Below are positions 1 to 15,351 of a stretch of 64,000 nucleotides of DNA, piece by piece; the first letter of the stretch is position 1; every line of letters starts with the position of its first letter. The stretch covers positions 576,001 through 640,000 of the forward strand of contig CAVOUE010000003.1 in the NCBI GenBank assembly GCA_963699545.1, given 5' to 3'. The stretch is from Nitrospirota bacterium. GTDB lineage: Bacteria; Nitrospirota; Thermodesulfovibrionia; Thermodesulfovibrionales; UBA9159. The translations under genes and the position numbers were made by a program. Under the pieces are notes generated by a model. It searched no databases, was not told where the DNA came from, and worked only from the letters and a program-made list of their open reading frames with translations.

Positions 1-784
1 TATCATCATTCATAAGATCGAAAGCTATGTGTCCGTCCGCAATGGCCTTGTAAATATTGTCGGCCGTTGCCAAACCCGAGGCATCTGCAACCGGTTCTCC
101 TTCTGTGTCAACCTCAGATTCGTCACGGTCTCTGTATTGCAGGAGGTCCGCGATGGTGAGCACCGCCTTTTCGGCAAGAACGCTTTTAAGAAGATCTACT
201 TTCCTCTCCTCAACGGGCGGGCAGGACGGGTCCATGTAGGCGGAAAGGAATTCAAGGTTCTGCACATATTGGCGTGGATGCTCATCCGCAGAACGGATCC
301 TGTAGGTTATGCCCATTTTGGCAAAATGCTCCTCTACGATAGGGAAACGCCAGCCGTCATCTTCCTTAATAAATCTGTCTGGATACTTCTTGGCAAGTTT
401 TTCGAGCCGCTTTTCCTCCCGCCATTCCTCGATGAGTATCTGGTCCTCCCGGATGATGAGGAAATCCGGCCAATGTTGTACGCGCGAGGGTTGGGTTTTC
501 CCCTCAGCCGTGGAAACCAGGTCCAGTTCACAGGGCTGGGCGTAGTATTCAAGGACAAAGGAGTCATGCTCGCACTGGACGGCAGTCGGGAACTCGACTT
601 TGCGGCTTTCGGTGCCTATAGGCCTGCCCATTTTCCTGCTGAAGTACCAGGTAATCACGTTACCGGAATGCGACTGGATATCCCTTACCGGCGCTTCCTT
701 CCTCGCCTTCTCCACTAAACGGCGGCCCGCCGTTGGAGTACCCAGTCGGTCAAACAAGGCATTTAATTCAATAGGACTCAGCAT
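1..784 (-). CDS. tnsA: Tn7-like transposase, TnsA endonuclease domain; probably N-terminus of a TnsA-TnsB fusion (runs off window, not in ORF track)
   Basis: Hand translation from ATG 784 (RBS AGGAGG 796-791): MLSPIELNALFDRLGTP...APVRDIQSHSGNVITWYFSRKMGRPIGTESRKVEFP...EHDSFVLEYYAQP...HWPDFLIIREDQILIEEWREE. TnsA_N motifs present; no stop in 261 codons. Confidence 0.88.
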   Translation of the reverse strand, partial: MLSPIELNALFDRLGTPTAGRRLVEKARKEAPVRDIQSHSGNVITWYFSRKMGRPIGTESRKVEFPTAVQCEHDSFVLEYYAQPCELDLVSTAEGKTQPSRVQHWPDFLIIREDQILIEEWREEKRLEKLAKKYPDRFIKEDDGWRFPIVEEHFAKMGITYRIRSADEHPRQYVQNLEFLSAYMDPSCPPVEERKVDLLKSVLAEKAVLTIADLLQYRDRDESEVDTEGEPVADASGLATADNIYKAIADGHIAFDLMNDD

Positions 785-892
785 CGTTGACCTCCTTTTA
801 AGGTTAGGCAACATGGCATCCAGTTAGATAAATCTAACTGAGCAAGTAAATAAAAAGCATTATTTGGCAGTATGTTCTTTCATGTTAGAAAT

Positions 893-922
893 ATCTTACA
901 ACATTTTGGCCTTGACAGTCAA
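893..922 (-). promoter_or_regulatory. sigma70 promoter for the transposase
   Basis: Minus strand TTGACT (922-917), 18 bp spacer, TAAGAT (898-893). Confidence 0.6.
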
Positions 923-941
923 GTAAAATGTTAGGTATAAT
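912..941 (+). promoter_or_regulatory. Consensus sigma70 promoter for the repressor (probably leaderless transcript)
   Basis: TTGACA 912-917, 18 bp spacer, TATAAT 936-941; ATG at 948 with no RBS. Confidence 0.8.
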
Positions 942-947
942 TTACAT

Positions 948-1568
948 ATGACGATCGGCGGCTATATGAAGGAAAAAAGAACATGGCTCAGACTGTCCCT
1001 GCGCGAGGCAGCGAAAGCGACAGGCATATCCCATGTTCACATTAAAGACATAGAAAACGATAAGATAAAGCCAAGTTTTGAAAAAATTATGCAGCTTCTT
1101 AAGGCCTATAATGCCGATATTCAGGGGTTCCTGAGTGAACTGGGCTTTCTGCCGCAAAACGTCGAGTCGGCCTCCATGGGGGAATCAAAGCCTGTGCCGC
1201 TTATTTCGTGGGTGGCCGCCGGACGGTTCGCGGACACCGATGCATTTCAGCAAGGTGAGGTTGCAGAATGGGTCGCCTCCGATGTGAAGGGACAAGATGT
1301 CTTTGCTTTGAGAGTAAGAGGCGATTCCATGGAGCCCGAGTTTACTGACGGCGATATTATCATACTGGACCCTCACGTAAAGCCTCATTCTGGGGATTAT
1401 GTGATAATAAGGAACGATGAAGGGGAAGCAACGCTTAAACAGCTTAAACAATATGGTAATATCCAGGTGTTGCATCCTCTGAACCCGAAGTACCCGGACA
1501 TAGAGTTATCGGGTGATCATCAGTATGTGATTGTTGGGAAGGTTGTGGAGAAGAAAAAGGGATATTAA
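948..1568 (+). CDS. Xre-HTH / peptidase S24 (CI/LexA-like) autocleaving repressor
   Basis: N-terminal HTH (LSLREAAKATGISHVHIKDIEND); cleavage site VAAG; catalytic Ser in GDSM and Lys in TLKQ. Confidence 0.93.
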   Translation: MTIGGYMKEKRTWLRLSLREAAKATGISHVHIKDIENDKIKPSFEKIMQLLKAYNADIQGFLSELGFLPQNVESASMGESKPVPLISWVAAGRFADTDAFQQGEVAEWVASDVKGQDVFALRVRGDSMEPEFTDGDIIILDPHVKPHSGDYVIIRNDEGEATLKQLKQYGNIQVLHPLNPKYPDIELSGDHQYVIVGKVVEKKKGY

Positions 1569-1688
1569 TTGTAACAGTGCTATTGATGAGTGAATGGGCA
1601 CTTCGCTTTTCTTTTGGGTAATGTCCATAGCATATCACCATAGACAGACAAGTTCGAAGAAGGGGCCACTTCCGTTAAAATAAACTCG

Positions 1689-2822
1689 ATGAATTTACCG
1701 CCAGAAAAGATATTCATTGCCAATTGCCATGTTAACAAGCTAGCCAAATTATCCAGAGATAATTTTCTTAAACGCGTAATCCACATAAAGGCTATCAGAG
1801 CTCAACCACTTAAAGCTTTCACTCTGCTTCCCAAGACTGAACAGGATTGGGTCGCGCTTGAACGTTTCTATGCTATTGTGAATAAGGGCGATTTTGGTCC
1901 AGACGCAAACCTTCCCTATGAAAGTCCTGCAAACACGATATTTGGAATCCATGTACCTTCCAATTTGTATCAGTGGTTTTCGAGGAACGACATTTCGACG
2001 ATCCTACGCCAAATAACGTTGTACTCAGCCACAGCATACCATCTTTACCATGGAGAGACCATACCCGAAATTGAGTCCCCCCTGATCAAAGAAGCGGTAC
2101 AGCAGGTGATGAATCGTTTCTATGCAAACAAGGATCTGTGGAATGTTCCCTTGGTCGAAGAAGCTTATCGCAATGCAGCACTTAATTACTGTAATTCGGC
2201 GATGCCGCTTTTCTTGTCGTCGGTTGCGGCCGATTTAAGCGAAGACGTCTACATCGATACGGCTTATTTCAGCAAGCACGACTGGAACTTTCACGTTCTT
2301 CGAAAAGTCACGAGGTCATATAAATGGCAGTATCTCGATGAGAGGCATGGCCCTAAGCCAAAACCAGAGGTTGATCAGAATTTGGTCGACGTCCCCCCGG
2401 AGCATTCTGAGAAGGTTTCCGAAAACGACTTAAGGGTGTCTGAAGCAAATGAAATTGCGTGGAGCATGTGGCTTATGACATTCCAACGCTATCCTGTCTC
2501 TAAGGCGCATATTTACAGCCTGTTCAGTAAGGAATCGGCAGCAGGCTACATCTATATTTTTCGCGCTGGAATGAGCTGCAGCTATAAGCTTGGGTGGACA
2601 GCAGATAGTGATATTGGCAAACGGCAATCTTCCCTTCAGACGGCCTCACGTGACCCTCTTATCATTGTCGATTTCTTTCCGGTATCTAACAGGAGGGCGG
2701 AAAAATCACTTCATGATATCTTTGCCAACAAAAGAACGTTAGGTGAATGGTTCGATCTAAGCGATGAGGATATATATCATCTGCGATCCGCTGACTGGAG
2801 ACGAGGGAATAACATATTTTGA
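1689..2822 (+). CDS. Protein with C-terminal T5orf172/Mug113-type GIY-YIG nuclease domain
   Basis: GYIYIF...YKLGWT...KRQSSLQTAS...EKSLHDIFANKRTLGEWFDL; N-terminal region not recognised. Confidence 0.8.
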   Translation: MNLPPEKIFIANCHVNKLAKLSRDNFLKRVIHIKAIRAQPLKAFTLLPKTEQDWVALERFYAIVNKGDFGPDANLPYESPANTIFGIHVPSNLYQWFSRNDISTILRQITLYSATAYHLYHGETIPEIESPLIKEAVQQVMNRFYANKDLWNVPLVEEAYRNAALNYCNSAMPLFLSSVAADLSEDVYIDTAYFSKHDWNFHVLRKVTRSYKWQYLDERHGPKPKPEVDQNLVDVPPEHSEKVSENDLRVSEANEIAWSMWLMTFQRYPVSKAHIYSLFSKESAAGYIYIFRAGMSCSYKLGWTADSDIGKRQSSLQTASRDPLIIVDFFPVSNRRAEKSLHDIFANKRTLGEWFDLSDEDIYHLRSADWRRGNNIF

Positions 2823-2857
2823 AGATGGCCTGTAAGGCTTCATTTCTCTGAGCGCCC

Positions 2858-5368
2858 CTATGTTTTTGCATATCGTGCGCGCTTTGTAAACTCGCAGTAA
2901 GGGAAATTTGAACATGCCAGGAAAGTTCCATACGGCCCATCCTTTTTTATCAGCTTTCCTCCTTTACAAAAGGGGCAGTCACCTCTTATCCCTTCTTTGT
3001 CCTGGATCTCTGTAATGAACTTGGATTTTTTTGACTCTTCGGTAAGTATAAAGACCTTGCGCTTTCCCCTAGTTAATGCCACATAGAATAGTCGTCTCTC
3101 CTCCGAGTTCTCATACAGATCAGGAGCTGTGAGCACTAGATTCAGTATGGGGTCATCCTCCATCTCGCTGGGGAATCCGTGCCTATCCTGAATTACGTTG
3201 TTTATTATCACATAATCAGCCTCCCTCCCTTTCGATTGATGGACGGATGTGAAATCGATGGTGATCTTGTTAAAACGCTGCACAAACTTGTCCAAAGTTT
3301 TTGGGGCCTTGAATTTGTATCTGTCTAAAATAAGAACGGATAACTTGCTCTTTTCCTTTCGTGCTTGTGTATTGATTCGTGACAAAACGTCGGCCAGTGG
3401 TTTATCATCGTCCTGCTCGCGCTTGTAAATGATCTCCAGTGAGGGCTCGCTCGCTATCAGATCTGTTTGTAGTTTCTTCGCCATTTGAAAAGGATTCTTC
3501 TGTATGAATTCACCTGAGATTTCGGAGATTTCCCTATTAAAACGAAACGTCTTCTCAATATAAGTTTTCTCGGTGTGGCCGAAATAATTCTCGAACGATG
3601 TCATGATATCCAAATCGCAGCCTGTGAATCTATAAATAGACTGCCAGTCATCTCCCACGCAAAATGTCTTAGTGCTGGGGGACTGATCAAGCAAGCTTTT
3701 GATCAGCGAGTACCTACCTTTGGAGATATCCTGGAATTCATCAATGAGGATGTAGTGAAAAGGAAACTCGTACCTGCCGCTTTTAATATAGGCCGTCGCC
3801 ATAGAAAGCATGTCGCTGAAATCAATACTGGACTCACTTTTCAAGTGCCCCTCATATTCCTCATAAATTGGTTCGAACACTTTCAGGAAGGCAATTGATC
3901 TTCCGGTTCTGTCTATCGTCGTAGCTTTCTCAATCACTTCCTGCATTGTGTATAGGTTCCCCTTAAAGAGGTTGAGGAATTTACAGATTAGGTGAATTAG
4001 TAGTGGGATATCTCTTGACTCCGTAAAATGCTTCAGGATTTCGTCGTCGTGTATTCTGTGGAGCATCATCCCTCTCTCCTGAAGCCTGAGGGCTAAATTC
4101 TTCAACAAAACACCTTCTCTTTTTTCATATGAGTATGTCTCTATGAGAGGAGTATTGTGCTCCATATGCATCCCTCGCGCCCACCCAATCTTTCCCTTAT
4201 AGAATTGGGATGCATTCATAGTACCTGTCTTCTGAAACCAGGGAGGAACGTTCCCATGTCTATCAATACCCCAATGTTCCAGGTAGATCTTGTGCTGTGG
4301 CAGGTAGAAATCCGGTCTATATTGCCTGTGATCCCGGTCCCTTGCCGGGAATTCGTACGGTCTCTCGTATTCGTAGTCGATGCCATTAAGAAAAAGGAAA
4401 TTCGCTATCTCAACTTCCTCGTAGCTTTTGAGTTTTTCGTTTTTCAGCGTAAAAATATTGTTTGACTTTATATACTGAATGTATTCATCGTGTGTCGAGA
4501 AAGCTTCCTGCGCTTTGTACGGGCGAAGATAATCGACAAGGTAGTCGACTAAGAGGGCTGAGTACTCTTCCCTTTTGACGAGCTTCTGATAAATGCTATT
4601 GATGAAAGATAAAGTATCTTGTTGCTCCCCAAATTTTACATCGGGCTTATCCCCCTTAACCGTTGCAATGACATCTCGACCAAAGCTGTGAAAAGTATGA
4701 ACCACAAATTGCGTGTCCGCGGGGGCGATGCCGGCAAGCCTCTCTTTTAGCCGATCGGCCATTTCTCTCATCACCTTTCTATTAAATGCAAGGATAAGGA
4801 TTTTATCTGGAGATATACCGTGTCTTGCAATAAGGTGGGCAACTTTCCCCACCATAGTTGTTGTTTTGCCCGTTCCCGCGCCCGCAATTACTAGACTGTT
4901 ATCCTCATCTTTGACTATAGCCAACCTTTGCGCTATATGAAGGGGATATCTTTCAACTGTATCAAAGAGCTGTGCGCATTCCTTCATCTCGCGGTCTGCA
5001 AACCACCCGTTGTATCTTTTGATGGTAGCGGTGCCATTGTCGCAGTACTTGAAATACCTAGAGAGCTTTGCCTTTACGTCGCTGCGGATTGGAAGTTTTT
5101 GAAAATCAAAGTCGATGACTGACTTGATATTCCCGTATTGCTGAAGCCAGTCCTCATACTTCTTCCAATTAAAGTATTCTTGACCCGAAAGATTCTTCTT
5201 GAACTCAAAAACGGCAGCCAACAGTTCGGGTTCGATAGAGGTGATGGCAGCCTTCCTTGCGCTCTCGATAGCGGCGATTACCGCCTTCCTCTTTCTTGTT
5301 ATCGTCTTACAGCGCCACCATATACCGAGAGCCGTAATTATAACGAGCGTTACTAAAAGATAGACCAT
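2858..5368 (-). CDS. UvrD/helicase IV-like SF1 helicase with N-terminal TM helix, inserted PD-(D/E)xK-like domain and C-terminal C4 zinc ribbon
   Basis: Walker A AGAGTGKTT, LIDEFQD, GDDWQSIY, EERRLFYVALTR; insert YEYE...RPDFYLP...LEHWG; CPFC...CSNFPYC. Confidence 0.9.
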   Translation of the reverse strand: MVYLLVTLVIITALGIWWRCKTITRKRKAVIAAIESARKAAITSIEPELLAAVFEFKKNLSGQEYFNWKKYEDWLQQYGNIKSVIDFDFQKLPIRSDVKAKLSRYFKYCDNGTATIKRYNGWFADREMKECAQLFDTVERYPLHIAQRLAIVKDEDNSLVIAGAGTGKTTTMVGKVAHLIARHGISPDKILILAFNRKVMREMADRLKERLAGIAPADTQFVVHTFHSFGRDVIATVKGDKPDVKFGEQQDTLSFINSIYQKLVKREEYSALLVDYLVDYLRPYKAQEAFSTHDEYIQYIKSNNIFTLKNEKLKSYEEVEIANFLFLNGIDYEYERPYEFPARDRDHRQYRPDFYLPQHKIYLEHWGIDRHGNVPPWFQKTGTMNASQFYKGKIGWARGMHMEHNTPLIETYSYEKREGVLLKNLALRLQERGMMLHRIHDDEILKHFTESRDIPLLIHLICKFLNLFKGNLYTMQEVIEKATTIDRTGRSIAFLKVFEPIYEEYEGHLKSESSIDFSDMLSMATAYIKSGRYEFPFHYILIDEFQDISKGRYSLIKSLLDQSPSTKTFCVGDDWQSIYRFTGCDLDIMTSFENYFGHTEKTYIEKTFRFNREISEISGEFIQKNPFQMAKKLQTDLIASEPSLEIIYKREQDDDKPLADVLSRINTQARKEKSKLSVLILDRYKFKAPKTLDKFVQRFNKITIDFTSVHQSKGREADYVIINNVIQDRHGFPSEMEDDPILNLVLTAPDLYENSEERRLFYVALTRGKRKVFILTEESKKSKFITEIQDKEGIRGDCPFCKGGKLIKKDGPYGTFLACSNFPYCEFTKRARYAKT

Positions 5369-5555
5369 TCCGCACCTTCTGAAAAGTATACCTCTTTTTT
5401 ATCTAAGAAATACTGATCTTTAGATGTGTGGAGTGTTTGTAATAGATGGCCATTCCACTTCCCCAGCTGTCTTAAGCGTAGTAGATAGGGGCACTATAAG
5501 TTAACCATTGGTGAGAAGAATAGTGCCCTTTTTGTTTTATGAAAGGAGAAAGAAA

Positions 5556-6215
5556 GTGTTTAAGCCACCATCTGCATTTAAGAAAGCCGGCGGTGAGAAC
5601 CGGTTGAATGCACTTTTGTCGTTAATGTCGCACAACAAGCGTCCCAATGGCGACTTTTGTACAATCAGTGTCCAAGAGAAGAAAACAAACACCTTAGGTT
5701 GGTGTGATAATGCCTTGAATGTCAGGCTACGGCTTGATTTATATGACGCGCAGCGCTGCTTTAAGTACTCCACTACTGTCTATAATGCTGTGTACTACTA
5801 CTATGGCGTCGCGACTTGTGGCAGGAGGAAAGATGTCGAGCTTCGCCTGGTATTGATTCAGGAGGACGGTAAAGTCCTTGACTCCGTGACGATTCATTCC
5901 TTAGAACGCCCTGCAGAGGAGGGGTACGGCGTTGAGGATCATAAGCATTATGAGTATCATGCCGAGGAGTTATATCGCGCCGAGGAGATTTGCTTTTCCC
6001 CTGAGAGCCCGATGTATTTCAGTTTATGGTTCGATATGAAATTATCGGGAGAGAATTCTGCCCATCAGGTCAAGGTGGATAGCGTTGGGGCATATCATGC
6101 TATCAAACAGGAGTATCGGAGGCATAAGGGTGGATGGGACAGGTTTACCATGATCATAGTAGATCACCTTCTGAACAATGACACACTGATAGACAAAATC
6201 AACGTGCGGTACTGA
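5556..6215 (+). CDS. Hypothetical protein
   Basis: Long ORF; AGGAG precedes GTG at 5556 (track start 5508); no family recognised. Confidence 0.55.
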   Translation: MFKPPSAFKKAGGENRLNALLSLMSHNKRPNGDFCTISVQEKKTNTLGWCDNALNVRLRLDLYDAQRCFKYSTTVYNAVYYYYGVATCGRRKDVELRLVLIQEDGKVLDSVTIHSLERPAEEGYGVEDHKHYEYHAEELYRAEEICFSPESPMYFSLWFDMKLSGENSAHQVKVDSVGAYHAIKQEYRRHKGGWDRFTMIIVDHLLNNDTLIDKINVRY

Positions 6216-6307
6216 GAAGTGGTTTCCCCGGCCTTTGATCGAGCCCCTTCAATCTTTATCCTTTCGGAATAAGTATCCCTGAGGAAGACACTTAGGTTTA
6301 TTTCCTC

Positions 6308-6336
6308 TTGACTTTTGTATGTAATTGTTTTTTAAT
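6308..6336 (+). promoter_or_regulatory. sigma70 promoter
   Basis: TTGACT 6308-6313, 17 bp spacer, TTTAAT 6331-6336. Confidence 0.6.
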
Positions 6337-6342
6337 TGTCTC

Positions 6343-6495
6343 AAGGGCTATGCGAAGGTCCGGACCGCCCGCAGGCGTTGAGAGCCACGGTGAAGCACAC
6401 AGCGATTCGCAACGATGTTTGTAGTTTCTCTGATCGACAGGGCACTTCCCTAAATATAGGGCTGCTCGATCGTCAATGCGGGCATTCGAGTATCA
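6343..6495 (+). ncRNA. Candidate structured RNA leader
   Basis: Nested pairings: GCCCGCA 6367-6373 with TGCGGGC 6477-6483; CGAA 6353-6356 with TTCG 6485-6488; GATCGA 6432-6437 with TCGATC 6466-6471; CCCTA/TAGGG 6448-6461. Confidence 0.55.
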
Positions 6496-6526
6496 GGGCA
6501 GCAACTATATTGAAGGAGGCATAGTG

Positions 6527-7862
6527 ATGTCGACAGAACAAGAGAATTTCCCCATTGATATTGCAAAAAGAAAAGCAAAGCATCTCCATTCCATCCTGAA
6601 AGTTCGTATCCCTGATATCTCTCTCGGCGAATGTCTTAACAGTTATGCAAGAATGGAAGGGGCGCGGGATTGGAATACGCTCAGTGCATCCTTCAAAGCA
6701 CAATCTCCCTATGAAGAAAGCCCTTATAAGAAGATAGGGACTTTTGTGGACGAGGTCTTGCGGCCTATGATGACGCAAATCGCCGGTGCACACGGGATGG
6801 AGTTTAGCGCCCCGGCGGCCTATTTTGTGGCACAGAAGGACGGGAGACGAAAACGTTGCAGACTCTCGACCGTCAAAGGAGCTCGAAGTGACCTTTTGGC
6901 CAAAAGGTCTGAGAAATAGCGATTTCAGTTTCAGCATCGAAGTGAGTCCTGCGGCTATTACTCAGGAAAGGGCAGAGATTACCTTTATGTTTCCGGAGCA
7001 GGCTTGCGGAGATGCAACGAGGATTCTCTCCAGTGAGAGGATGCCCTACGTTCTCACGCCAAGCCTTATGCGAACAACGGAAAAAGGGAGAACTATGTAT
7101 CGTCTTATCCTGGAGCTGGAGCCGTTCTTCTATTTCGCCGGCGAGGCTGGGGAAATGTGGCAAGCTGCTGAAAAGATTGAGCATGTCCGGCAGGAAGTTG
7201 AGGAAACCGTTGCCAAGTATGCAAAGCTCAACGCTGTTTTTCAGAGGCTGTCCAGAAAATGGGGCGATAAAAAACTCCTGTCCAGCTTTGAAACGACGTT
7301 ATGGGAGGTCTTCACCGGAAAGCCCCGCTTTATGTCCGCGTCGACCGAATTCCATCGTGCGTCTTTCGGAGATGTGACTCTTACAGCCCATGTGGGAGAC
7401 TCCGGGCCTTACCTCAAAGGTCCTGAAGGGAATCTCAAGCTCGGTGTGAGTTCAATAATCTACCTCGAAGGAGGCGATAAAAAGCCTGCCGGGTATTACG
7501 TCGCGAAGTATGGCAACGATTATGAGGCTGACATTTACCTGAAAGGCATCGCGAAGGAAGGTATTGCAGACATTACAGCCGAATTTGGAGTTCCCATGGA
7601 CTACAAACTAGCAGTGCAATTAGGGATACCCCTGGAAGAGGTCAAAGAGGAGTACGTCGCTTTTTACAGATCGCGTGCATTCCTTGGGCTGCAGGACTGG
7701 GTTTCCAGAAACCGGAGCTTTGCAAAGAGAATAAGCAGACAGGCTCCATATCTCCCTGATTGGTACGAAAGGGCTACCGGTCAGCGTCCGATTCCGGATT
7801 CGGATGAAGACTTGGACCAGGAAGGTGGAGCGATAAGGAACCGCCGCAGGTCAAGGAAATAG
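6527..7862 (+). CDS. Protein with N-terminal 'glyoxalase superfamily' (Glyoxalase_8-like) helical domain and unknown C-terminus; split by one frameshift near 6830-6850
   Basis: RBS AGGAGG 6514-6519; AKRKAKHLHSILK...ISLGECLNSYARMEGARDWNTLSA; overlapping ORFs 6476-6919 and 6786-7862. Confidence 0.6.
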
Positions 7863-7869
7863 GGCTGCA

Positions 7870-7901
7870 CGGGGAAAGGGGTTATTATTCCCCTTTCCCC
7901 G
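7870..7901. terminator. Perfect 12-bp hairpin (terminator-like or processing stem)
   Basis: CGGGGAAAGGGG-TTATTATT-CCCCTTTCCCCG; no U-tract. Confidence 0.55.
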
Positions 7902-7942
7902 GAAATGCGAGATCGCATAACACTCTACAGGAGGATTTTGTC

Positions 7943-8572
7943 ATGGCAGCTTCCCAGGAGGAGAGAGTAGAAAGGGCAATGAAGAAGCTCGGTATCGAGG
8001 ATGATACTCCACTCGATGATATCTGCGATGTTGTCACGCGCATGTTCGCTTATGGTGGGGTCGCCTATATGTCGTCTGACTGGCGAGAGCATACACATCT
8101 TACCCGAAGACAAGCCGGACGTCTCTTTGAAGGTTACTTTAGAGGGTTCCAAGGTTTCAAGAACTTCGGGACTGGTCCAGGCGGGATTGAGAGATATGGA
8201 TGCAGTCGCTTTAAGGTTCACTATTACCATCCGGAACTAAGGGCTGCGTTCGACCTTGTATCCAAAACAGGGGTAGCGCCTTCGCGGCTGGCTGGTGCAA
8301 GAGCAAAAGTCCGTTTCTTCAAGGATCTGAAAATTACCTATATCCCCTTGCCCTATTCAAAGCTTTATGAAATGGTCGTGGAGCGGGTAAGAAAGATCAT
8401 CAAGAACAAGGAACTCAACAGCAATAAGGCGGTTCTGTCTTACTTCATTGGAGACGCCCCCATTGAGCCTATGGAAGAAATGGGCCAAATATTTGGAACG
8501 ATATTTGGAGATCTCTTTGACAATATTTTCGAAACGAAACCGACAGTGAGAAAAGAGGAGGCCACTATCTGA
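7943..8572 (+). CDS. Hypothetical protein
   Basis: 209-aa ORF with GGAGG RBS. Confidence 0.7.
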   Translation: MAASQEERVERAMKKLGIEDDTPLDDICDVVTRMFAYGGVAYMSSDWREHTHLTRRQAGRLFEGYFRGFQGFKNFGTGPGGIERYGCSRFKVHYYHPELRAAFDLVSKTGVAPSRLAGARAKVRFFKDLKITYIPLPYSKLYEMVVERVRKIIKNKELNSNKAVLSYFIGDAPIEPMEEMGQIFGTIFGDLFDNIFETKPTVRKEEATI

Positions 8573-8726
8573 CAAGAAGGATATCGCCAGTAGGGTCAAA
8601 GAGCGCAGTGCCACTGTGGACATTGCTTTCACTCCCAGACGCGGGGTAGGCTGGAGTGCCTTTGATTCCGGCGTTTTGGCCCGCGTTTGCTAGGTCTCGT
8701 TAACAAAAGAATAATTAAGAAAAGTT

Positions 8727-9146
8727 ATGAGTATACGGGCTCGCATTGAGGATGCTTTGTTCCTATATCAAAACGGCAGATATGAAGGCGCATTTCTAAA
8801 TGCACTCATTGCCGTTGCTGCAACTGCTCGTGTCGAATCTCCTGGCCGCGCTACAAGCGATCGTGAATGTTTTGAGAAGTTCTTAGACAAGCGGCAGCGA
8901 GGCATAATCAAGGTCGAATATAGAGGCGAGCTACATACGGTTCCTCATATTTTATATAAATGGTTTAGATGCGAACTGGTACATGAAGGCAAGCTGCCCA
9001 TTGACGTTCAATTTATAGCAACAGATGATTTGTCTGTCAGGGCTGGCGGTGCTCCAGAATATATTCTAAAGATCTCTCATGGCTGGTTTCATTGGCTCAT
9101 CAACTCTGTTATAGAGGCCCCCTGCAATGCAAATGAATTCAAATGA
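8727..9146 (+). CDS. Small HEPN-like protein
   Basis: Helical N-terminus (A..LY..GRYEGA...ALIAV) and RxxxxH motif RCELVH. Confidence 0.65.
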   Translation: MSIRARIEDALFLYQNGRYEGAFLNALIAVAATARVESPGRATSDRECFEKFLDKRQRGIIKVEYRGELHTVPHILYKWFRCELVHEGKLPIDVQFIATDDLSVRAGGAPEYILKISHGWFHWLINSVIEAPCNANEFK

Positions 9147-9240
9147 TGAGTCTGTTGCTTGCATTACGCGACGTGGGAGCGTGCGAAACAGCCTTTTCAA
9201 GAATTATGTGATCTGATATTATCTTGCCATCGGACTAATT

Positions 9241-10284
9241 ATGGAAACACATGACTGGAAGAGTTTTGAAAGGCTTGTGGCGGCAATTAACGCCACTAAA
9301 ATGAGAGGGGCCGACGTCAGGTGGAATGATAAGATTAATGGTCGTCAATTCGATGTCAGCATCCGATTTAAATTTGGAGATTACGAATATTTGACCGTCA
9401 TAGAGTGCAAGAACTACGGGTCCAAGGTGGCGGTGGAAAAAGTTGAAGCCTTCATCACAAAAAGTGGGGACGTAAAGGCTAATAAGGCGGTAATGGTATC
9501 GTCCTTGGGATTTCAGGAAGGTGCAATTACAGTTGCCAAACAGCACGGGATTGATCTGATTACTTTAAATGAAAAAGTCGAGTATCCCGAAGAAAAGCTA
9601 ACCTCGATTGTGATTCCAGCTGTAAACATTTATGGCGTATCTTTATTAAGAAAAGGCAAAAGACAACCGATAGAGTTTGAGGGCGGCTCTAAATTACGTT
9701 ATTCGCTTTCTCATACGTTTGTGATTCAAGAATCGAAGAAAGCCGCTTTGGATAGCATCTTGTCGGATTGGGTCAATAAGAATTACGAAAAATTGTCATA
9801 CGCTGAAAGCATGCATGAAATAGCTTTCCCTGAAGGTTCCATTGTTGAAGTTTCCGAGAATGGTATTCAAAACCGTATTAGAGCAATTGCATTTAAGGCC
9901 CGCTTTATAGATACGACCCCCTCAAAGGGCCCGATGTTAGATCCACATCTGCATGAAAGAATGAATACTTATGTAGTAATGGATAATATACTCAACGGAA
10001 CCACAGAAAAAATTAAGCTGACAGACATTGAGCACGGTTTTGATACCAAAGTAAAAGAGGGATACTTCTACGTGTCGCCTCAATCAGGGCAGACTTATTT
10101 CTGTGAGAAGATCGAAGGTGACTTAGTTACTTGGTGGCTCGTAGAATCGTACCAGCACGGCCAAAGAATAGACATACGATTTACACAAGAGCTTGAGTAC
10201 TCCAAGTATTATAAGGAGATATTGGATGAAAAGATAATTAAGAGGTTGAGGAAATCGATAAATGAACTCTTGAAAGGCAGCTGA
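9241..10284 (+). CDS. Mrr-like restriction endonuclease domain protein
   Basis: WKSFERLVA...RQFDV...IECKNY...VEKVEAF...AVMVSSLGFQEGA; no adjacent methyltransferase. Confidence 0.85.
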   Translation: METHDWKSFERLVAAINATKMRGADVRWNDKINGRQFDVSIRFKFGDYEYLTVIECKNYGSKVAVEKVEAFITKSGDVKANKAVMVSSLGFQEGAITVAKQHGIDLITLNEKVEYPEEKLTSIVIPAVNIYGVSLLRKGKRQPIEFEGGSKLRYSLSHTFVIQESKKAALDSILSDWVNKNYEKLSYAESMHEIAFPEGSIVEVSENGIQNRIRAIAFKARFIDTTPSKGPMLDPHLHERMNTYVVMDNILNGTTEKIKLTDIEHGFDTKVKEGYFYVSPQSGQTYFCEKIEGDLVTWWLVESYQHGQRIDIRFTQELEYSKYYKEILDEKIIKRLRKSINELLKGS

Positions 10285-10389
10285 CAAAATTAACCCTTTT
10301 CCGCTGCGAGCCACATTTTGGTAAAACACGATGCGCCAAACTTTAGTTCCACTTTTGCACGGCGCGACAAACTATCGGCAACGTCACAC

Positions 10390-11175
10390 TCAGACTGCCT
10401 TCTTGTATCTGCATCTTGGAAAATTACTGCATCCCAAGAACGGTTCCCCTGCAGACTTACCACTCTTGGCAACGCGCTGTACGAGCTGCCCGCCACAGCG
10501 AGGGCAAATCGTTGTTAACTCATGACGCTCGCGCAACGAATCGAGGTGTGTATCGCGGCTTATAGGATTATCCTGTTTCAATTTTCTCAGCGATGTCTCT
10601 ATCTCAGTAACTTGTTGCGGTGTAAGGCAAGGCTGTCTGAAGTCTTTGATGTATGGAACGAGGCCGCTGCTCATCACATTAGAAGGCATAGGCGTCTTGA
10701 ATGTGCAATCCCCTATAAAGAAGACAATCGGCTTAAAGATCTCATGATCCAGGCGAAGATACTCAGACAGACATTTTGTATGCCGGTAGTTCTGCTTAAT
10801 GGGGTTTTGAAACTGGCTCTTTTTACCAAAGATTGACTGTGTCCATTTATCGTTTTCCGGGGAGCCGAATATCCACCCTTTTATATTCTTCGTTTCTATG
10901 ACGAAGATCCCATATACCGAGACGATCACATGGTCAATCTGTGTTGTGCCATCTGAGGCGGGTACAATTACGTCGTCGATTCTGCGGTAGGTATCTCTAT
11001 CCAGCAGCGCCCACATCCCGGCAGAAGTGATTTTTTCGCCGATCCAGCCCTTGACGGTCTTACGTCTGCGCTTTAATAAGGCTATGACCACTAGAATGAA
11101 AATAATAGGGATCAAAAACACTAATCCTTGGGAAAGCCCTTTCAAAAGAGCAAGAATCATGTCAATTGATGTCAC
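10390..11175 (-). CDS. NERD nuclease with N-terminal TM helix and C-terminal topoisomerase-type C4 zinc ribbon
   Basis: KGWIGE...TQIDHVIVSVYGIFVIETKNIKGWIFG...NPIKQN; CPRCG...GCSNFPRC. Confidence 0.92.
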   Translation of the reverse strand: MTSIDMILALLKGLSQGLVFLIPIIFILVVIALLKRRRKTVKGWIGEKITSAGMWALLDRDTYRRIDDVIVPASDGTTQIDHVIVSVYGIFVIETKNIKGWIFGSPENDKWTQSIFGKKSQFQNPIKQNYRHTKCLSEYLRLDHEIFKPIVFFIGDCTFKTPMPSNVMSSGLVPYIKDFRQPCLTPQQVTEIETSLRKLKQDNPISRDTHLDSLRERHELTTICPRCGGQLVQRVAKSGKSAGEPFLGCSNFPRCRYKKAV

Positions 11176-11198
11176 GATGGAAGTCCCTTCTCATCAGC

Positions 11199-11894
11199 TC
11201 ATTGACTACTTGTAATCTTGATGTCTTGGAAAAACTTTTGAGCTTGTGGGAGAATGTAATCAACATATTCAGGCTTTACCCTGACATATCCTGAGACCTC
11301 TCCGTTGTCTTTATCTTCAAATTTCGGGTCCAGCTCGATGAAGCCCTGTGCAATGTGTTTTCTTAATGCCCCGTCTTTGGTGTTAAGCAGACCCCTATTG
11401 TGGACTATCGCATTTCTAAGAGTCCGAAGGCCAACTATTTCCGGCCACTGAGCATTCTTTCCGAGGTCCAAATCCACATCTAAGACTTTTTCCATATAGA
11501 GCTTCGCCTGGTCCAGATAACCTCCCTTGAGGTCACTGTACCGTAAATCAACCTTTTCACCCTTTTTCTGTCTATCATGGCGAAGTGTATCACACAGGAG
11601 GCCCATTCCTGCCTCTATGCTGGCATAGAGCATCACGACGAAGGAGTCCAGAGCAAGCTTTCCGAAGACGTAGTCTATTTTTTGGTAATCGTCCGAGAAA
11701 AACTCTAAGTATTCCTCTTGCTCCTTTGCGTCTAAGCCTTTCGCTCCTTCTTCTAAACGCTCTGCAGTTAGCTTCTGCTCTCGATCAATGGCAAACTTCA
11801 TGAATGCATTATAATCCAGCAAGTTATCGAAGCCACTTATGATAAATTTGTGCATCATAGGGGCTAAACTCATAACATCTCCCTTGCTTGGCAT
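11199..11894 (-). CDS. HEPN-like protein
   Basis: VVMLYASIE...WPEIVGLRTLRNAIVHNRG (RxxxxH). Confidence 0.7.
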   Translation of the reverse strand: MPSKGDVMSLAPMMHKFIISGFDNLLDYNAFMKFAIDREQKLTAERLEEGAKGLDAKEQEEYLEFFSDDYQKIDYVFGKLALDSFVVMLYASIEAGMGLLCDTLRHDRQKKGEKVDLRYSDLKGGYLDQAKLYMEKVLDVDLDLGKNAQWPEIVGLRTLRNAIVHNRGLLNTKDGALRKHIAQGFIELDPKFEDKDNGEVSGYVRVKPEYVDYILPQAQKFFQDIKITSSQ

Positions 11895-12143
11895 ATCACA
11901 CTATTGACGTTCCCCGCCGTCGTTATTTTGTTTTTTGCCATGCCGATATTATGCCAGCTTTAGAATTTGCAGGCAATAGAAATGCAATACTTGATCACAA
12001 GAAGTCGTGGACTCCTGGGGCAGAGTGAGCACGGCGCTATTTAGTGATACGGACTTGACCATTATTCTAAGAGAATTATTCCAGTAGAATAATTCCCGAT
12101 GGCGGATGGGAACGGTTAGGTTGCATTAGAAGTAATGTAGGGA

Positions 12144-13142
12144 CTATTTTTTCTTCATAAAATCAGGAATCATCTTCCCTATTTTTAAGAGCATTACAAT
12201 ACCTGTCATAGTGAAAAAGAAAATAATAAACCAGCTCAAAGAGAAGATAACATTGAAAAGATATTGTTTGGAATCCAACAGGGAAAGAGATAAGTTGGTT
12301 TTGAAAAGATACTCTGAATTTAAATTAATACTATCGGAACCATAGACGAGAATACCCACCATGCAGAGAAGAACTAATAGAGAGACATAGGAAATGTTTA
12401 ATATAAATCCCTGTATAAAATATTTTCGTATAGCATTGTCATGCTGGTTTTCTGAGGTAATGATGCCGAGGAAGATACCAAGTAGTCCGACGTAAGATAC
12501 ATATACGGCAGAAATGGTTGTTAAGGCTGTCTTCAGTGTATCTGGAGCAATGACTCCAAAGAAATGAAAAGGGTAAACGCTTAGAACCAGAACAGCAGAA
12601 CATGCCACTAATACAAAATGGAACCAATTAGGAATGTCAAAAAATTCGTCATAAGGTCTTATTAGAATCCACTTAACAAAAAATATAGCAAATCCGAGCA
12701 TCCATATTGGCTGTTTCAGCTTATAAGCGAGATAAAGAAGAACTATCAATCTAAAGGGCTTAATGATAAAATCGTTGATATTATGACCGTCAGGAGAGGT
12801 GACATAGGCATTCCCAGTCTTTATCAGAAAACGGATTCTCAGGACATTCATAATTAGGTACGTGACAGCTAATATGAGGACACCGACATCTTTATCGGTA
12901 CAGTAAATTATGATAAAGGAAAGAAAATAGAACGCATTTTGGGATAGTGTCTGACTGCTAATTCTCAATTTGCTATGCTTCTCATGACGATGTGCTTTTG
13001 AAAAAGGTTCTTCTGTTAAAGATGCCTTTTTTCTCGTAAAGACTCGAAATATTAACCGTGGCACATCCGCAAGCATAAATAGAATCCAGGCCATTCTTAT
13101 CCAAGTGACAGGTGTCATATCATTCACCAAACCTGCAATCAT
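12144..13142 (-). CDS. Multi-pass membrane hypothetical protein
   Basis: Many hydrophobic segments; very AT-rich; 13120-13347 may be a frameshifted N-terminus. Confidence 0.7.
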   Translation of the reverse strand: MIAGLVNDMTPVTWIRMAWILFMLADVPRLIFRVFTRKKASLTEEPFSKAHRHEKHSKLRISSQTLSQNAFYFLSFIIIYCTDKDVGVLILAVTYLIMNVLRIRFLIKTGNAYVTSPDGHNINDFIIKPFRLIVLLYLAYKLKQPIWMLGFAIFFVKWILIRPYDEFFDIPNWFHFVLVACSAVLVLSVYPFHFFGVIAPDTLKTALTTISAVYVSYVGLLGIFLGIITSENQHDNAIRKYFIQGFILNISYVSLLVLLCMVGILVYGSDSINLNSEYLFKTNLSLSLLDSKQYLFNVIFSLSWFIIFFFTMTGIVMLLKIGKMIPDFMKKK

Positions 13143-13399
13143 ATCTGATTATAGTTGATATACTTGGCAATTTTCTCGCCGTTATTAATTTGCTTTGCTT
13201 CGGCATCCGTATAACCTTTGTCTCTAAAGCGTTCCTTTCCGGAAGAAACCCTACATTTATAGCAGAAACGCCATAGTGTACAACACGTTCAGCCAAGACA
13301 AGCAGCCGTGATTTCGAGGACATTAGATTGTCACGAAAGAAAATCACCGGGAGGATATTTTAGGGTATGCCAGCACCCTTCCTCCTAGTCTACACGGTG

Positions 13400-13542
13400 C
13401 GACAGGATATGCTTCTGATTCTGCACGGCACGACACATTATGCTTCTATGGGTAGTTAAATTCTGGCAATTAGACCGGTGATTTGAATAGTAAAACGACA
13501 GGTTATGATTCCGAAGGGCGACACATTATGCCTCACGGCACA
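13400..13542 (-). repeat. Tn7-like transposon end: four TnsB-type binding repeats plus 8-bp terminus
   Basis: CGACAGGATATGCTTC 13400-13415; CGACACATTATGCTTC 13431-13446; CGACAGGTTATGATTC 13496-13511; CGACACATTATGCCTC 13519-13534; then ACGGCACA (reads TGTGCCGT from outside). Confidence 0.85.
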
Positions 13543-13737
13543 GTTCAGTTCGTTCGTTGGCTTCCCGAAATCCTCAACGGACGTCAACAGGTTTCGTTTT
13601 GGCAGGGAGAAGTATTTCTGAATGCAGGTGATGTTCAGGCTGGAAGCCGGGAGACGGTATAGACCAACGCTCATTCCTGAGCCTTTGGCATAACAGGGAG
13701 ATCCAAACGTCAGGGCAAGACTACAACCTAAACTAAT

Positions 13738-13947
13738 TCAAAAGCCGTAACTGTATTGCCATTTCCTTCTTAAACATTTCGCCAAAAAGAGGGCACAGTT
13801 ATCATAGTTTTCGTTGTTGCAGCGCTTCAATCTTACTAATGCCCCTATCTTGAGAGATGTCACGGATGCTTTGCATACATCTGTCTTGACATCACAGTAC
13901 GGACATGCATCCAAGTCTTCTCTGGCCCTTGTTGCTAGTGCATTCAT
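13738..13947 (-). CDS. Small Cys-rich protein (69 aa)
   Basis: RBS AGGAGGTG before ATG 13947; CPYC...C...C...NCALFLAKCLR. Confidence 0.7.
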   Translation of the reverse strand: MNALATRAREDLDACPYCDVKTDVCKASVTSLKIGALVRLKRCNNENYDNCALFLAKCLRRKWQYSYGF

Positions 13948-13967
13948 GGTATCCACCTCCTTTCTTC

Positions 13968-14147
13968 TTAGCAATTGAATGAAAACCTCCTTGCGGCACT
14001 ATTCGCTATGATGCTTGGCAAGTTCAGTTCAGGTCTTACCCATACCTCCCTGTCTTCGATTTGTTCTTCGTAATCACAAAGAATGTTAGAACACTCATAA
14101 TGAGTTTCCCTGTCCAACATCTCTCTGCCGCACGCCAGGCATTTCAT
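13968..14147 (-). CDS. Small zinc-ribbon protein (59 aa; not in ORF track)
   Basis: RBS AGGAGGT 14160-14154; MKCLACGREMLDRETHYECSNILCDYEE... Confidence 0.7.
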   Translation of the reverse strand: MKCLACGREMLDRETHYECSNILCDYEEQIEDREVWVRPELNLPSIIANSAARRFSFNC

Positions 14148-14179
14148 GACACTACCTCCTTATCCGGATTACTGCTGAC

Positions 14180-14235
14180 AGTTTAGTAAAAGGATGTTAC
14201 AGGGTGATGACTGTACCGTGAAGTTTTCATGTCAA
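14180..14235 (-). promoter_or_regulatory. Pho-box-like (PhoB/OmpR family) tandem repeats with -10 element
   Basis: Minus-strand heptamers at 11-bp period: TTGACAT, ACTTCAC, CAGTCAT, CTGTAAC; then 10 bp and TAAACT. Confidence 0.6.
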
Positions 14236-14394
14236 ACCCCTCGTGAACTATCGAAATTATCGATATATGAGATAACCATAAATAACAACCTGACAAATGA
14301 TGTTATCCTGCCAAAATGAATAGAAAAACAAAATCCTGTGGACATCATCAAGGTGTATAGTCTCATTTCAATATTTCCTTTCGATGTCGATAGA

Positions 14395-14410
14395 AGCAAC
14401 TCACGTGCCC
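14395..14410 (-). promoter_or_regulatory. sigma54 (-24/-12) promoter
   Basis: GGGCACG-TGAG-TTGCT (GG-N10-GC); AT-rich tract upstream. Confidence 0.55.
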
Positions 14411-14653
14411 GAACAAAAAAGCTTCAATTATGGGCAGCTATAGAAGAGAGGTCTTTGCGTCAAATAACATAATTGTTATGTATAAACAATAATGTATTGA
14501 GATACCAGAGAACCGGCAGGGACATTCCCCTACGGGGGTCGCAGCGGCACTCCCGGGTGATCACTGATTATGAACGGGATGGCTAGAGGTAGCGCTGAGT
14601 TTATCTTTGCTCGGTTGGCGAAACATGAGCCTGAGGGGAAGAGTTTCCGGGGA

Positions 14654-15337
14654 CTAAAGAGGTGACTGGTCCGGCTCCTTCTCCGAGAACAGTTTCGTTC
14701 TTTTTATCGCTCCCATCAGATAGTCCTTGAATTTATCAGGAAAGAGCCACTGTATCCCCAGTTTCTCAGCCCAGAGGATCAAGCCCTGATCGGCGGAAAT
14801 CAACAGAGCATCCAGTTCCGCGGCGAGGAGGAGCAGGTCCACATCCTCTTTGCTGTCGATGATCCCCTCCCTCAGCGCCTCCCGGTACTTTCTTCTCAGG
14901 TCCTGGATTATCTCATCCGGTTTTTTCTTTTCAGCACCCCTCACTGCCTTCTCCGCGATCCGCAACCCCTTGTTCACCCTCTCCCGCATGTCTTCTATCA
15001 GTTCATAAAGCAGGAACGCGGGAATCTTAAGTTCATGCCGCTTAGGCGGTTTCTGATGCAGGATAAGGAGGAGGTCCCCGGGGATCCTTTCCTTTTCCAC
15101 AAAATGGAGCAGTTCCTCAAATATGGACGGCGGCATATAAAATTCCAGGATATGGATCTGCGCTGCCAGAAACAGGAAGGTCTCAAGGGCTTCTGTGGGC
15201 GTGCTCCCGAGGCTTGTCCGGACATCAGGATTGACAAAAAGACTTGTGTCCAGGACAACCCTATGGGGCGGCGGGAGAAAAGTGAGAGGAGGCGATGCAC
15301 CACCGTGGTCCTCGAGTTCGTTACGCTCATCGCCCAT
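14654..15337 (-). CDS. HARP protein-only RNase P (Aq_880-like PIN protein)
   Basis: VLDTSLF...YMPPSIFEEL...IPAFLLYELIEDMRERVNKGLRIAE...LRRKYREALREGIIDSKEDVDL...SADQG. Confidence 0.92.
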   Translation of the reverse strand: MGDERNELEDHGGASPPLTFLPPPHRVVLDTSLFVNPDVRTSLGSTPTEALETFLFLAAQIHILEFYMPPSIFEELLHFVEKERIPGDLLLILHQKPPKRHELKIPAFLLYELIEDMRERVNKGLRIAEKAVRGAEKKKPDEIIQDLRRKYREALREGIIDSKEDVDLLLLAAELDALLISADQGLILWAEKLGIQWLFPDKFKDYLMGAIKRTKLFSEKEPDQSPL

Positions 15338-15351
15338 CCCGATCTGTCCTT

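Follow-up and report, generated by a model that had tools for sequence, protein, structure and literature searches.

How is the transposase operon of a Tn7-like element held in check in an established host, and what could set it free? The question is raised by a stretch of 64,000 nucleotides from a Nitrospirota bacterium (assembly GCA_963699545.1, contig CAVOUE010000003.1; C3:576001-640000, hereafter the window), at the beginning of which a transposase gene, tnsAB, and the gene of a CI-like repressor are read away from a common spacer. Both belong to an element of 19,660 bp, which extends over C3 569883-589542, that is, from position 11883 of another stretch of the same contig (L002; L002 11883 corresponds to C3 569883) to position 13542 of the window; positions given below without a prefix are those of the window. 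The original prediction, made from the letters and the open reading frames (ORFs) of the window, described this locus as a Tn7-like element inducible by DNA damage through a lambda-like switch of three operators. The element proved to be real, having two defined ends, a 5-bp target-site duplication and a tRNA attachment site, with the repressor gene inside. To the original description the present analysis adds the fusion of TnsA with TnsB, the element boundaries, the location of the repressor and cargo within them, and the linkage of the regulatory cassette to tnsAB in two relatives.

According to the reading we favour, and regard as rather probable, the repressor would silence tnsAB by way of three palindromes, and silencing would be relieved either upon entry of the element into a repressor-free cell or by RecA-stimulated self-cleavage of the repressor. 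The dependence of cleavage and derepression on RecA, taken separately, is held with less assurance, slightly short of an even balance. Tn7-like elements are valued for their tightly targeted insertion, as in CRISPR-associated transposons (CASTs) and genome engineering, and carry large defence or resistance cargoes. As to what decides when they move in nature, only the Xre regulators of type I-F3 and the MerR-type regulators of type V-K elements were found in the literature searched. If the proposed reading is true, a cleavage-competent CI-type repressor carried by the element and acting on the tnsAB promoter would link Tn7-type transposition to DNA damage or conjugative entry.

The control region between tnsAB and the repressor gene

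The spacer between tnsAB and the repressor gene comprises 163 bp (positions 785-947). The gene coordinates, the spacer length and the Xre/S24 type of the repressor, as originally predicted, all hold on the sequence, the ORF list and the Pfam matches, and the palindrome formed by back-to-back -35 boxes was found in its place (see Table 1 for all feature positions). Three operator-like sites, described as covering the -10 box of tnsAB, the -10 box of the repressor gene and a part of the tnsAB leader, are likewise present. They are the sole matches to the 16-bp pattern GTWAG-N6-YTWAC in the 64 kb, where five strand-matches at three places were counted against 0.29 ± 0.59 expected and none of 100 shuffled sequences reached five. 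Over the whole 3.04-Mb genome, a regular-expression search of the plus strand gave eight matches, three of them in the spacer. The sites are centred at 830.5, 891.5 and 937.5, i.e., they are spaced by 61 and 46 bp. The mRNA of the repressor is probably leaderless, because its ATG (position 948) follows only 6 nt after the predicted -10 box. For tnsAB, besides the predicted promoter with its -10 box at 898-893, a second candidate has this box at 864-859.

The notion that these palindromes are not repressor operators at all, representing instead chance AT-rich repeats, transposase (TnsB) end sites or a hairpin of the leader RNA, appears very improbable. The spacer is indeed AT-rich, and the leader RNA could fold at O1 into a hairpin of 9 bp, but the structure of this leader is not unusually stable (z = -0.86), and the shuffled sequences mentioned above speak against chance. 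One and the same half-site recurs at all three places and is conserved over three loci (see the next section). The role of TnsB end sites was ruled out, as a weight matrix built from the end repeats of the element describes a different motif and finds it at the two element ends only. A search of positions 1-16000 against Rfam gave no families.

The repressor and its linkage to tnsAB

The closest solved structure to the repressor is that of lambda CI (3bdn, E 4e-13). In the alignment, Ala91-Gly92 falls on the lambda segment VQAG, Ser127 (in GDSM) on GNSM, and Lys164 on FKKL; these segments we take to be the Ala111-Gly112 cleavage site, Ser149 and Lys192 of lambda CI, respectively. The prediction that the cleavage site and the Ser/Lys dyad are retained was thus borne out. 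The four residues are also kept in most of 121 aligned homologues (A91 in 121, G92 in 111, S127 in 120 and K164 in 117), and none of the three Tn7-linked copies of the repressor has lost the site or the dyad. The protein was also considered as a LexA proper and rejected as such, since it scored 53.7 bits with TIGR00498 at a cut-off of 110.95 and its N-terminus is of the HTH_3 family. Two other S24 ORFs, encoded elsewhere in the host genome and lacking evident N-terminal similarity to the repressor of the element, were read as LexA-type proteins of the host, which also encodes RecA (459 bits).

The homologues of the repressor number more than 120, with 48-92% identity, about 40 of them at 64% or above, and matches were found in 51 genomes of a phylum sample of 401. 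Six viral contigs of IMG/VR encode relatives as well, four of them full-length with 41-42% identity; in one such contig that was inspected, the repressor gene diverges from a gene of a 62-aa helix-turn-helix (HTH) protein, which is the cI-cro arrangement. Considering this arrangement of the relatives on prophage contigs and in genomes, the element appears to carry a phage-type immunity repressor, with tnsAB standing in for cro.

The constancy of the pairing was assessed from the side of the transposase. Homologues of TnsAB retained at E 1e-10 or better amounted to 160, and 67 loci from species-representative genomes together with 80 from metagenomes were fetched. After removal of 20 loci in which the N-terminus was absent, less than 700 bp were available upstream or the sequence was a duplicate, 127 were kept, and 119 of these have a divergent ORF of 60 aa or longer with its start no more than 600 bp upstream of tnsAB. 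Pfam assigned 27 of the 119 ORFs to DUF6471, eight to HTH_3 and two to Peptidase_S24. The two S24 loci, L003 and L004, both belong to Nitrospirota (75 and 74% TnsAB identity, respectively), and when the ORFs of the fetched loci were searched with an iterated hidden Markov model of the repressor, the window, L003 and L004 alone gave matches. Both loci keep the three sites, the -35 palindrome, the repressor -10 box and the ATG directly after it, while the rest of the spacer has drifted: over the three loci, 27 of 30 half-site columns and 12 of 13 columns of the -35 palindrome are invariant, as compared with 26 of 93 columns in the other parts. Consequently, the conservation of the repressor and operators beside tnsAB, proposed at the outset as a check, was found in these two relatives, but it does not extend to the family at large. 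Three further S24-tnsAB pairings are suggested only by TnsAB and repressor matches on contigs of equal length (4568, 21039 and 11217).

The same three loci bear on the suggestion that the repressor mainly controls the defence or restriction-modification genes downstream of it, in the manner of a C-protein or of a damage sensor, its adjacency to tnsAB merely marking the boundary between core and cargo. The next genes do lie on the strand of the repressor in all three loci and are of defence type, being T5orf172 in the window, a XamI endonuclease with a methylase in L003 and a C5-methylase in L004, and the HTH domain weakly matches capH in PADLOC (E 2.6e-06). However, it is precisely this downstream gene that varies from locus to locus, so that what stays with the repressor is tnsAB and the control region rather than the cargo. 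In addition, O1 and O2 are situated between the -35 boxes and tnsAB, leaving only O3 on the repressor side, and no further operator copy occurs in the 64-kb window, cargo included. We therefore consider control of the cargo as the main function of the repressor improbable, although less so than the absence of any operator function of the palindromes.

In other relatives the same slot is occupied by different regulators. L005, L006 and L070, which are comparably close by TnsAB identity (67, 73 and 68%, respectively), have there a protein composed of HTH_3 and a C-terminal domain of about 170 aa. This domain matched no family of Pfam or NCBIfam; for this alternative regulator, of the L006 type, AlphaFold2 modelling from three sequences gave a mean pLDDT of 41, too low to be of use, and the C-terminal scores in the ESM Atlas, at most 0.78, were uninformative. 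L006 and L070 share a different long palindrome at the tnsAB promoter (TATGTAA...TTACATA in L070). Over all six loci, with both regulator types, homology begins only at the tnsAB start codon, and the two types are interleaved on a quick TnsAB tree. Hence the promoter, operators and regulator are exchanged as a unit, the S24 cassette being one of several interchangeable cassettes at this position in the TnsAB-fusion family. Such an exchange between close relatives suggests a general control layer in this branch of transposons, and it gives DUF6471 a likely role.

The usual role of regulator in this branch of transposons probably falls to the DUF6471 protein (about 100-120 aa as called), which is encoded divergently and just upstream of tnsAB in the 27 relatives counted above, mainly Betaproteobacteria. 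No mention of DUF6471 was found in the literature searched.

The proposed switch and its place among known systems

In the mechanism we propose, dimers of the repressor would occupy the three 16-bp palindromes, GT(T/A)AG-N6-(C/T)T(A/T)AC. Bound at O2, the repressor would occlude the -10 box and the start of the weak tnsAB promoter; bound at O3, it would cover its own -10 box, resulting in negative autoregulation of its probably leaderless mRNA; O1, located in the tnsAB leader, may assist either by looping to O2, 61 bp away, or as a roadblock. With the tnsAB promoter thus repressed, the tns operon would remain silent in an established host. Derepression is envisaged along two routes. On the first, the element enters a cell free of repressor and undergoes zygotic induction; on the second, activated RecA would stimulate self-cleavage at Ala91-Gly92 by the Ser127/Lys164 dyad, the trigger being DNA damage or the conjugative entry of single-stranded DNA.

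The second route is the less certain of the two, and a switch responding to entry only has to be weighed against it: the repressor would silence tnsAB and permit zygotic induction, its S24 domain serving for dimerisation or answering to a trigger other than RecA, with no induction by DNA damage. The known Tn7-like regulators RtaC and RtbC, Xre proteins of I-F3 CASTs, act in this way: Xre regulators repress the transposition modules of these elements, and zygotic induction was put forward for them (10.1101/2020.07.02.184150). Regulators lacking S24 fill this slot in comparably close relatives, so that the family does not depend on an SOS input, and no conserved plasmid- or phage-targeting selector was seen when the products of orf266 and orf129, two genes of the element located beyond tniQ, were compared with the fetched loci. 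A RecA-independent S24 regulator is also on record (PMC7101444). The intact Ala-Gly site and Ser/Lys dyad in the three Tn7-linked copies and in 111 to 121 of the 121 homologues tell against this explanation, arguing that cleavage is under selection, and we consider a purely entry-driven switch unlikely, though clearly less so than a regulator of the cargo.

Several further observations weigh against the reading we favour, that of a tnsAB switch answering both to entry and to RecA. The pairing with S24 is rare, comprising two of the 119 divergent upstream ORFs, and the other regulator type in L005, L006 and L070 speaks against a general pairing. Among 14 full-length homologue loci of the repressor from other genomes of the 401-genome sample, a single one, in G322, taken as the genome of L003, has an adjoining tnsAB, and two of the others have a divergent gene of a Cro-like HTH_3 protein of 71-73 aa. 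The predicted tnsAB promoter matches the consensus at 9 of 12 positions only, its -10 box is poorer in L003 by a by-eye reading of the alignment, and the count of the promoter scan (4 versus 2.0 ± 1.4 in shuffles) was not significant. The operator spacing of 61 and 46 bp means that cooperativity between adjacent sites of the lambda type does not apply. Since the downstream cargo genes share the strand of the repressor in all three loci, the repressor transcript may run into them. No conserved second target selector was found, the products of orf266 and orf129 matching no fetched locus, and no escape route is evident, so that a benefit of SOS induction to the element in its resident host is not obvious. 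From the literature, S24 repressors working without RecA dependence, as noted above, count here as well, and according to PMC12452197 neither a CAST nor Tn7 is under SOS control.

With lambda CI and other phage CI repressors, the protein under study shares the two-domain layout of HTH and S24, the Ala-Gly site and the Ser/Lys dyad, and the locus shares with lambda the back-to-back divergent promoters, the operators over -10 boxes and the probably leaderless repressor mRNA. In lambda, the cI mRNA transcribed from PRM is leaderless. Unlike in lambda, no Cro is encoded here, there being no ORF between the operators and tnsAB, whereas the prophage and genomic relatives of the repressor have a gene of a 62-73-aa HTH protein at the Cro position; the repressed operon starts with a transposase, the element is a transposon without phage genes, and its operators are not adjacent. 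The original label of a lambda-like three-operator switch therefore does not fit, and bistability is not expected. For the same reasons, namely the missing Cro and the spaced operators, the system resembles derepression of the SetR or LexA type more than that of lambda.

SetR of the integrative and conjugative elements (ICEs) SXT/R391 is a CI-like S24 repressor that links mobility genes to the SOS response by controlling the activators of excision and conjugation. It likewise serves a mobile element other than a phage, but that element is an ICE with a tyrosine recombinase, while the target here would be the operon of a DDE transposase; the two are likened by description, not by sequence. In integron integrases and Tn5, mobility genes are under LexA control, and there also an S24 repressor wires mobility to DNA damage. 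These systems rely on the LexA of the host, whereas the present element brings its own repressor and operator motif. In canonical Tn7, the tnsAB promoter is located in the right end and is repressed by the binding of TnsB. Both elements limit their transposase tightly at the level of transcription, employ the TnsA/TnsB/TnsC/TniQ-TnsD machinery, show a 5-bp duplication and home past a conserved gene; in contrast to Tn7, tnsAB is fused here, the operon is directed toward the attachment-site end, and the promoter, at a distance of 6.9 kb from that end and 12.8 kb from the opposite one, has a dedicated repressor cassette beside it.

Described counterparts are RtaC and RtbC of I-F3 and CvkR (MerR-type) of V-K elements, which have palindromic sites at their own and at a target promoter (10.1101/2020.07.02.184150, PMC11406308, PMC9938897). 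Like the repressor of the window, these are element-encoded repressors of Tn7-like transposition modules, and zygotic induction was proposed for them. RtaC and RtbC differ from the S24 repressor in being C-protein-like Xre proteins of 68-100 aa, CvkR being of the MerR type, and none includes S24; they act on tniQ-cas or on guide RNAs rather than on tnsAB, and their genes are placed between tnsABC and tniQ-cas. No SOS link is reported for them, and in one study (PMC12452197) tnsB was unchanged by mitomycin C.

The literature searched yielded no description of a Tn7-like element with an S24 repressor, although supplementary tables might list such genes; Benler et al. 2021 (PMC8649781) do not mention S24-type or Xre regulators in their main text. 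It is only tentatively, with less assurance than for the RecA dependence itself, that we would call this the first transposon of the Tn7 family in which a self-cleaving CI-type repressor of its own makes the transposase operon inducible by DNA damage. The same caution applies to the broader statement that the TnsAB-fusion branch has replaced end-linked autoregulation by TnsB with a plug-in cassette, the sensor of which is exchanged (S24, Xre with the 170-aa domain, or DUF6471). If this is true, the signal that sets off transposition would differ from lineage to lineage. Being compact, with 163 bp plus 206 aa, the operator-repressor pair could also serve as an inducible control module.

Boundaries, transposition operon and cargo of the element

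The element starts 28 bp downstream of a tRNA-Leu(CAG) gene (L002 11768-11854), and its tRNA-proximal terminus opens with TGTGTCGCGGAACCATAAC... The terminal 25 nt of the two ends form an inverted match (TGTG..CATAA..TGTCGC). Repeats of the CGACAnnnTATGnnTC type are present in three copies at the tRNA-proximal end and in four at the distal one; the weight matrix derived from these seven copies, applied over the range from -30 kb to +64 kb, found matches confined to the two ends. The element thus displays TGT...ACA termini, several internal repeats of the transposase-binding type and a 5-bp duplication, as is characteristic of Tn7-like transposons, and encloses both the repressor gene and cargo of the defence type. 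With the same matrix nothing was found in L003, and weak scattered matches were obtained in L004 and L006, hence the position of the repressor inside an element is established for the window element only.

Table 1. Features of the Tn7-like element, its control region and the corresponding slots in related loci (window positions unless a locus is named)
Feature	Position	Strand	Description
CI-like repressor, 206 aa	948-1568	+	Xre-type HTH_3 (42 bits) and Peptidase_S24 PF00717 (98.1 bits, cut-off 23.3)
Repressor promoter	912-941	+	TTGACA, 18 nt, TATAAT; 12/12 match; -10 and ATG kept in L003 and L004
Palindrome CTTGACAGTCAAG	911-923		two overlapping back-to-back -35 boxes; 12/13 columns invariant over three loci
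Predicted tnsAB promoter (tentative)	893-922	-	TTGACT (922-917), 18 nt, TAAGAT (898-893); 9/12 match; -35 kept in L003 and L004
O1 GTTAGATAAATCTAAC	823-838		perfect palindrome in the tnsAB 5' leader, about +48 to +63 of predicted P_tns; 9/10 half-site columns invariant
O2 GTTAGAAATATCTTAC	884-899		over predicted -10 and start of P_tns; 9/10 half-site columns invariant
O3 GTTAGGTATAATTTAC	930-945		over the repressor's own -10; 9/10 half-site columns invariant
Shine-Dalgarno AAGGAGG of tnsAB	790-796	-	from sequence; 5 nt before ATG 784
tnsAB, 5' part	1-784, continues to L002 16049	-	TnsA-TnsB fusion, 912 aa; Tn7_TnsA-like_N, rve, Mu-transpos_C
Target-site duplication, GTTCA	L002 11878-11882 and 13543-13547		5 bp, flanks both termini
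tRNA-distal end	13399-13542	+	four direct CGACAnnnTATGnnTC repeats (position weight matrix 18-mers from 13399, 13430, 13495 and 13518); terminus ...CACGGCACA
Cargo block	1689-13142		includes several ORFs without family
T5orf172/MUG113 protein	1689-2822	+	cargo
UvrD/GajB-like helicase	2858-5368	-	cargo; with Zn ribbon
Mrr_cat nuclease	9241-10284	+	cargo
NERD protein	10390-11175	-	cargo; with Zn ribbon
Alternative regulator	L005 5885-6589, L006 6171-6893, L070 3504-4244	-	HTH_3 and C-terminal domain of about 170 aa
DUF6471 protein, examples	L022 6573-6884, L074 482-817, L076 4587-4916	-	
DUF6471 protein, further examples (L025, L036)			

In two relatives, one of the same genus (G401) and one of the same family (G175), the tRNA-Leu(CAG) gene lies 64 and 30 bp, respectively, from the homologue of the gene at 14654-15415, while the same gap measures about 20.8 kb in the present genome. 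The element is thus homed in a site-specific manner downstream of a conserved gene, and G401 and G175 possess a site of the empty type. The spacer 3' of the tRNA gene is not conserved in comparison with G401 or G175 and an extra 1.1 kb lies beyond the element, so the exact sequence of the empty site is not alignable. Both the TnsAB fusion and homing 30-33 nt downstream of tRNA-Leu are known for related elements (PMC10293859). The extra segment (13548-14636), situated between the transposon duplication and the flank common to the relatives, contains neither an ORF of at least 80 aa nor an Rfam match; since portions of it (about 13720-14500) recur on other contigs of four genomes in the family, it may have been left behind by a further mobile piece. 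On the other side, directly before the tRNA-Leu gene, ORFs of 147 aa (DsbC_N) and 102 aa (thioredoxin-like) lie 30 nt apart on the same strand (L002 10919-11695, +); the pair may represent a split or frameshifted dsbC/dsbG, or an assembly error.

The end proximal to the attachment site is unusual in its layout: behind the terminal transposase site come two sites pointing the other way, which make up a palindromic pair with a distance of 20 bp (L002 11883-11957). This layout is kept beside tRNA-Pro in L073 (10389-10454) and beside tmRNA in L008 (6625-6700). In L008, which comes from a Geothrix relative, only about 330 bp separate the homologous end from the start of tnsAB, with no regulator gene in between. 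In the lineage of the window, the tns operon as a whole has the reverse orientation with respect to this end and borders directly on the regulator cassette.

The transposition operon runs leftward from ATG 784 and consists of tnsAB, tnsC, encoding a TniB/AAA_22 ATPase of 364 aa, and the gene of a TniQ protein of 467 aa, so that a TnsA-type endonuclease, a DDE TnsB, an AAA+ TnsC and TniQ/TnsD are combined in a single operon, as in Tn7-like elements. The ORF originally described as carrying a TnsA domain indeed has this domain, but it is only the part of the gene cut by the window edge, the full product being a fusion of TnsA, rve and Mu-transposase_C domains. The window fragment scored 28.5 bits with Tn7_TnsA-like_N (cut-off 26.5), and the full 912-aa protein 26.2 bits, slightly below the cut-off. 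All 29 aligned TnsAB relatives share residues D527, D596 and E632. The start at ATG 784, behind its Shine-Dalgarno sequence, has its parallel in relatives that begin with MLSxIELN.

In the presumed nuclease motif of TnsA, PDF...EEW-K/R (PD...E-x-K), putatively assigned from the sequence, residue 122 (about 419-421, minus strand) is Arg. Of 25 close relatives, 19 likewise have Arg there; of 29 members of the wider family, 15 have Lys. The residue may bear on the nuclease activity of TnsA, i.e., on the choice between cut-and-paste transposition and cointegrate formation. Between tniQ and the tRNA-proximal end, the already mentioned orf266 and orf129 (266 and 129 aa, the latter membrane-like; L002 12230-13404, minus strand) match no Pfam family. 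With these two beyond tniQ, cargo is present on both sides of the tns operon.

In the main cargo block, the UvrD/GajB-like helicase and the NERD nuclease both end in a C4 zinc ribbon of the topoisomerase type (Zn_ribbon_Top1), and the helicase also matches the PADLOC model of a DRT-associated helicase (RTasHel, E 6e-46).

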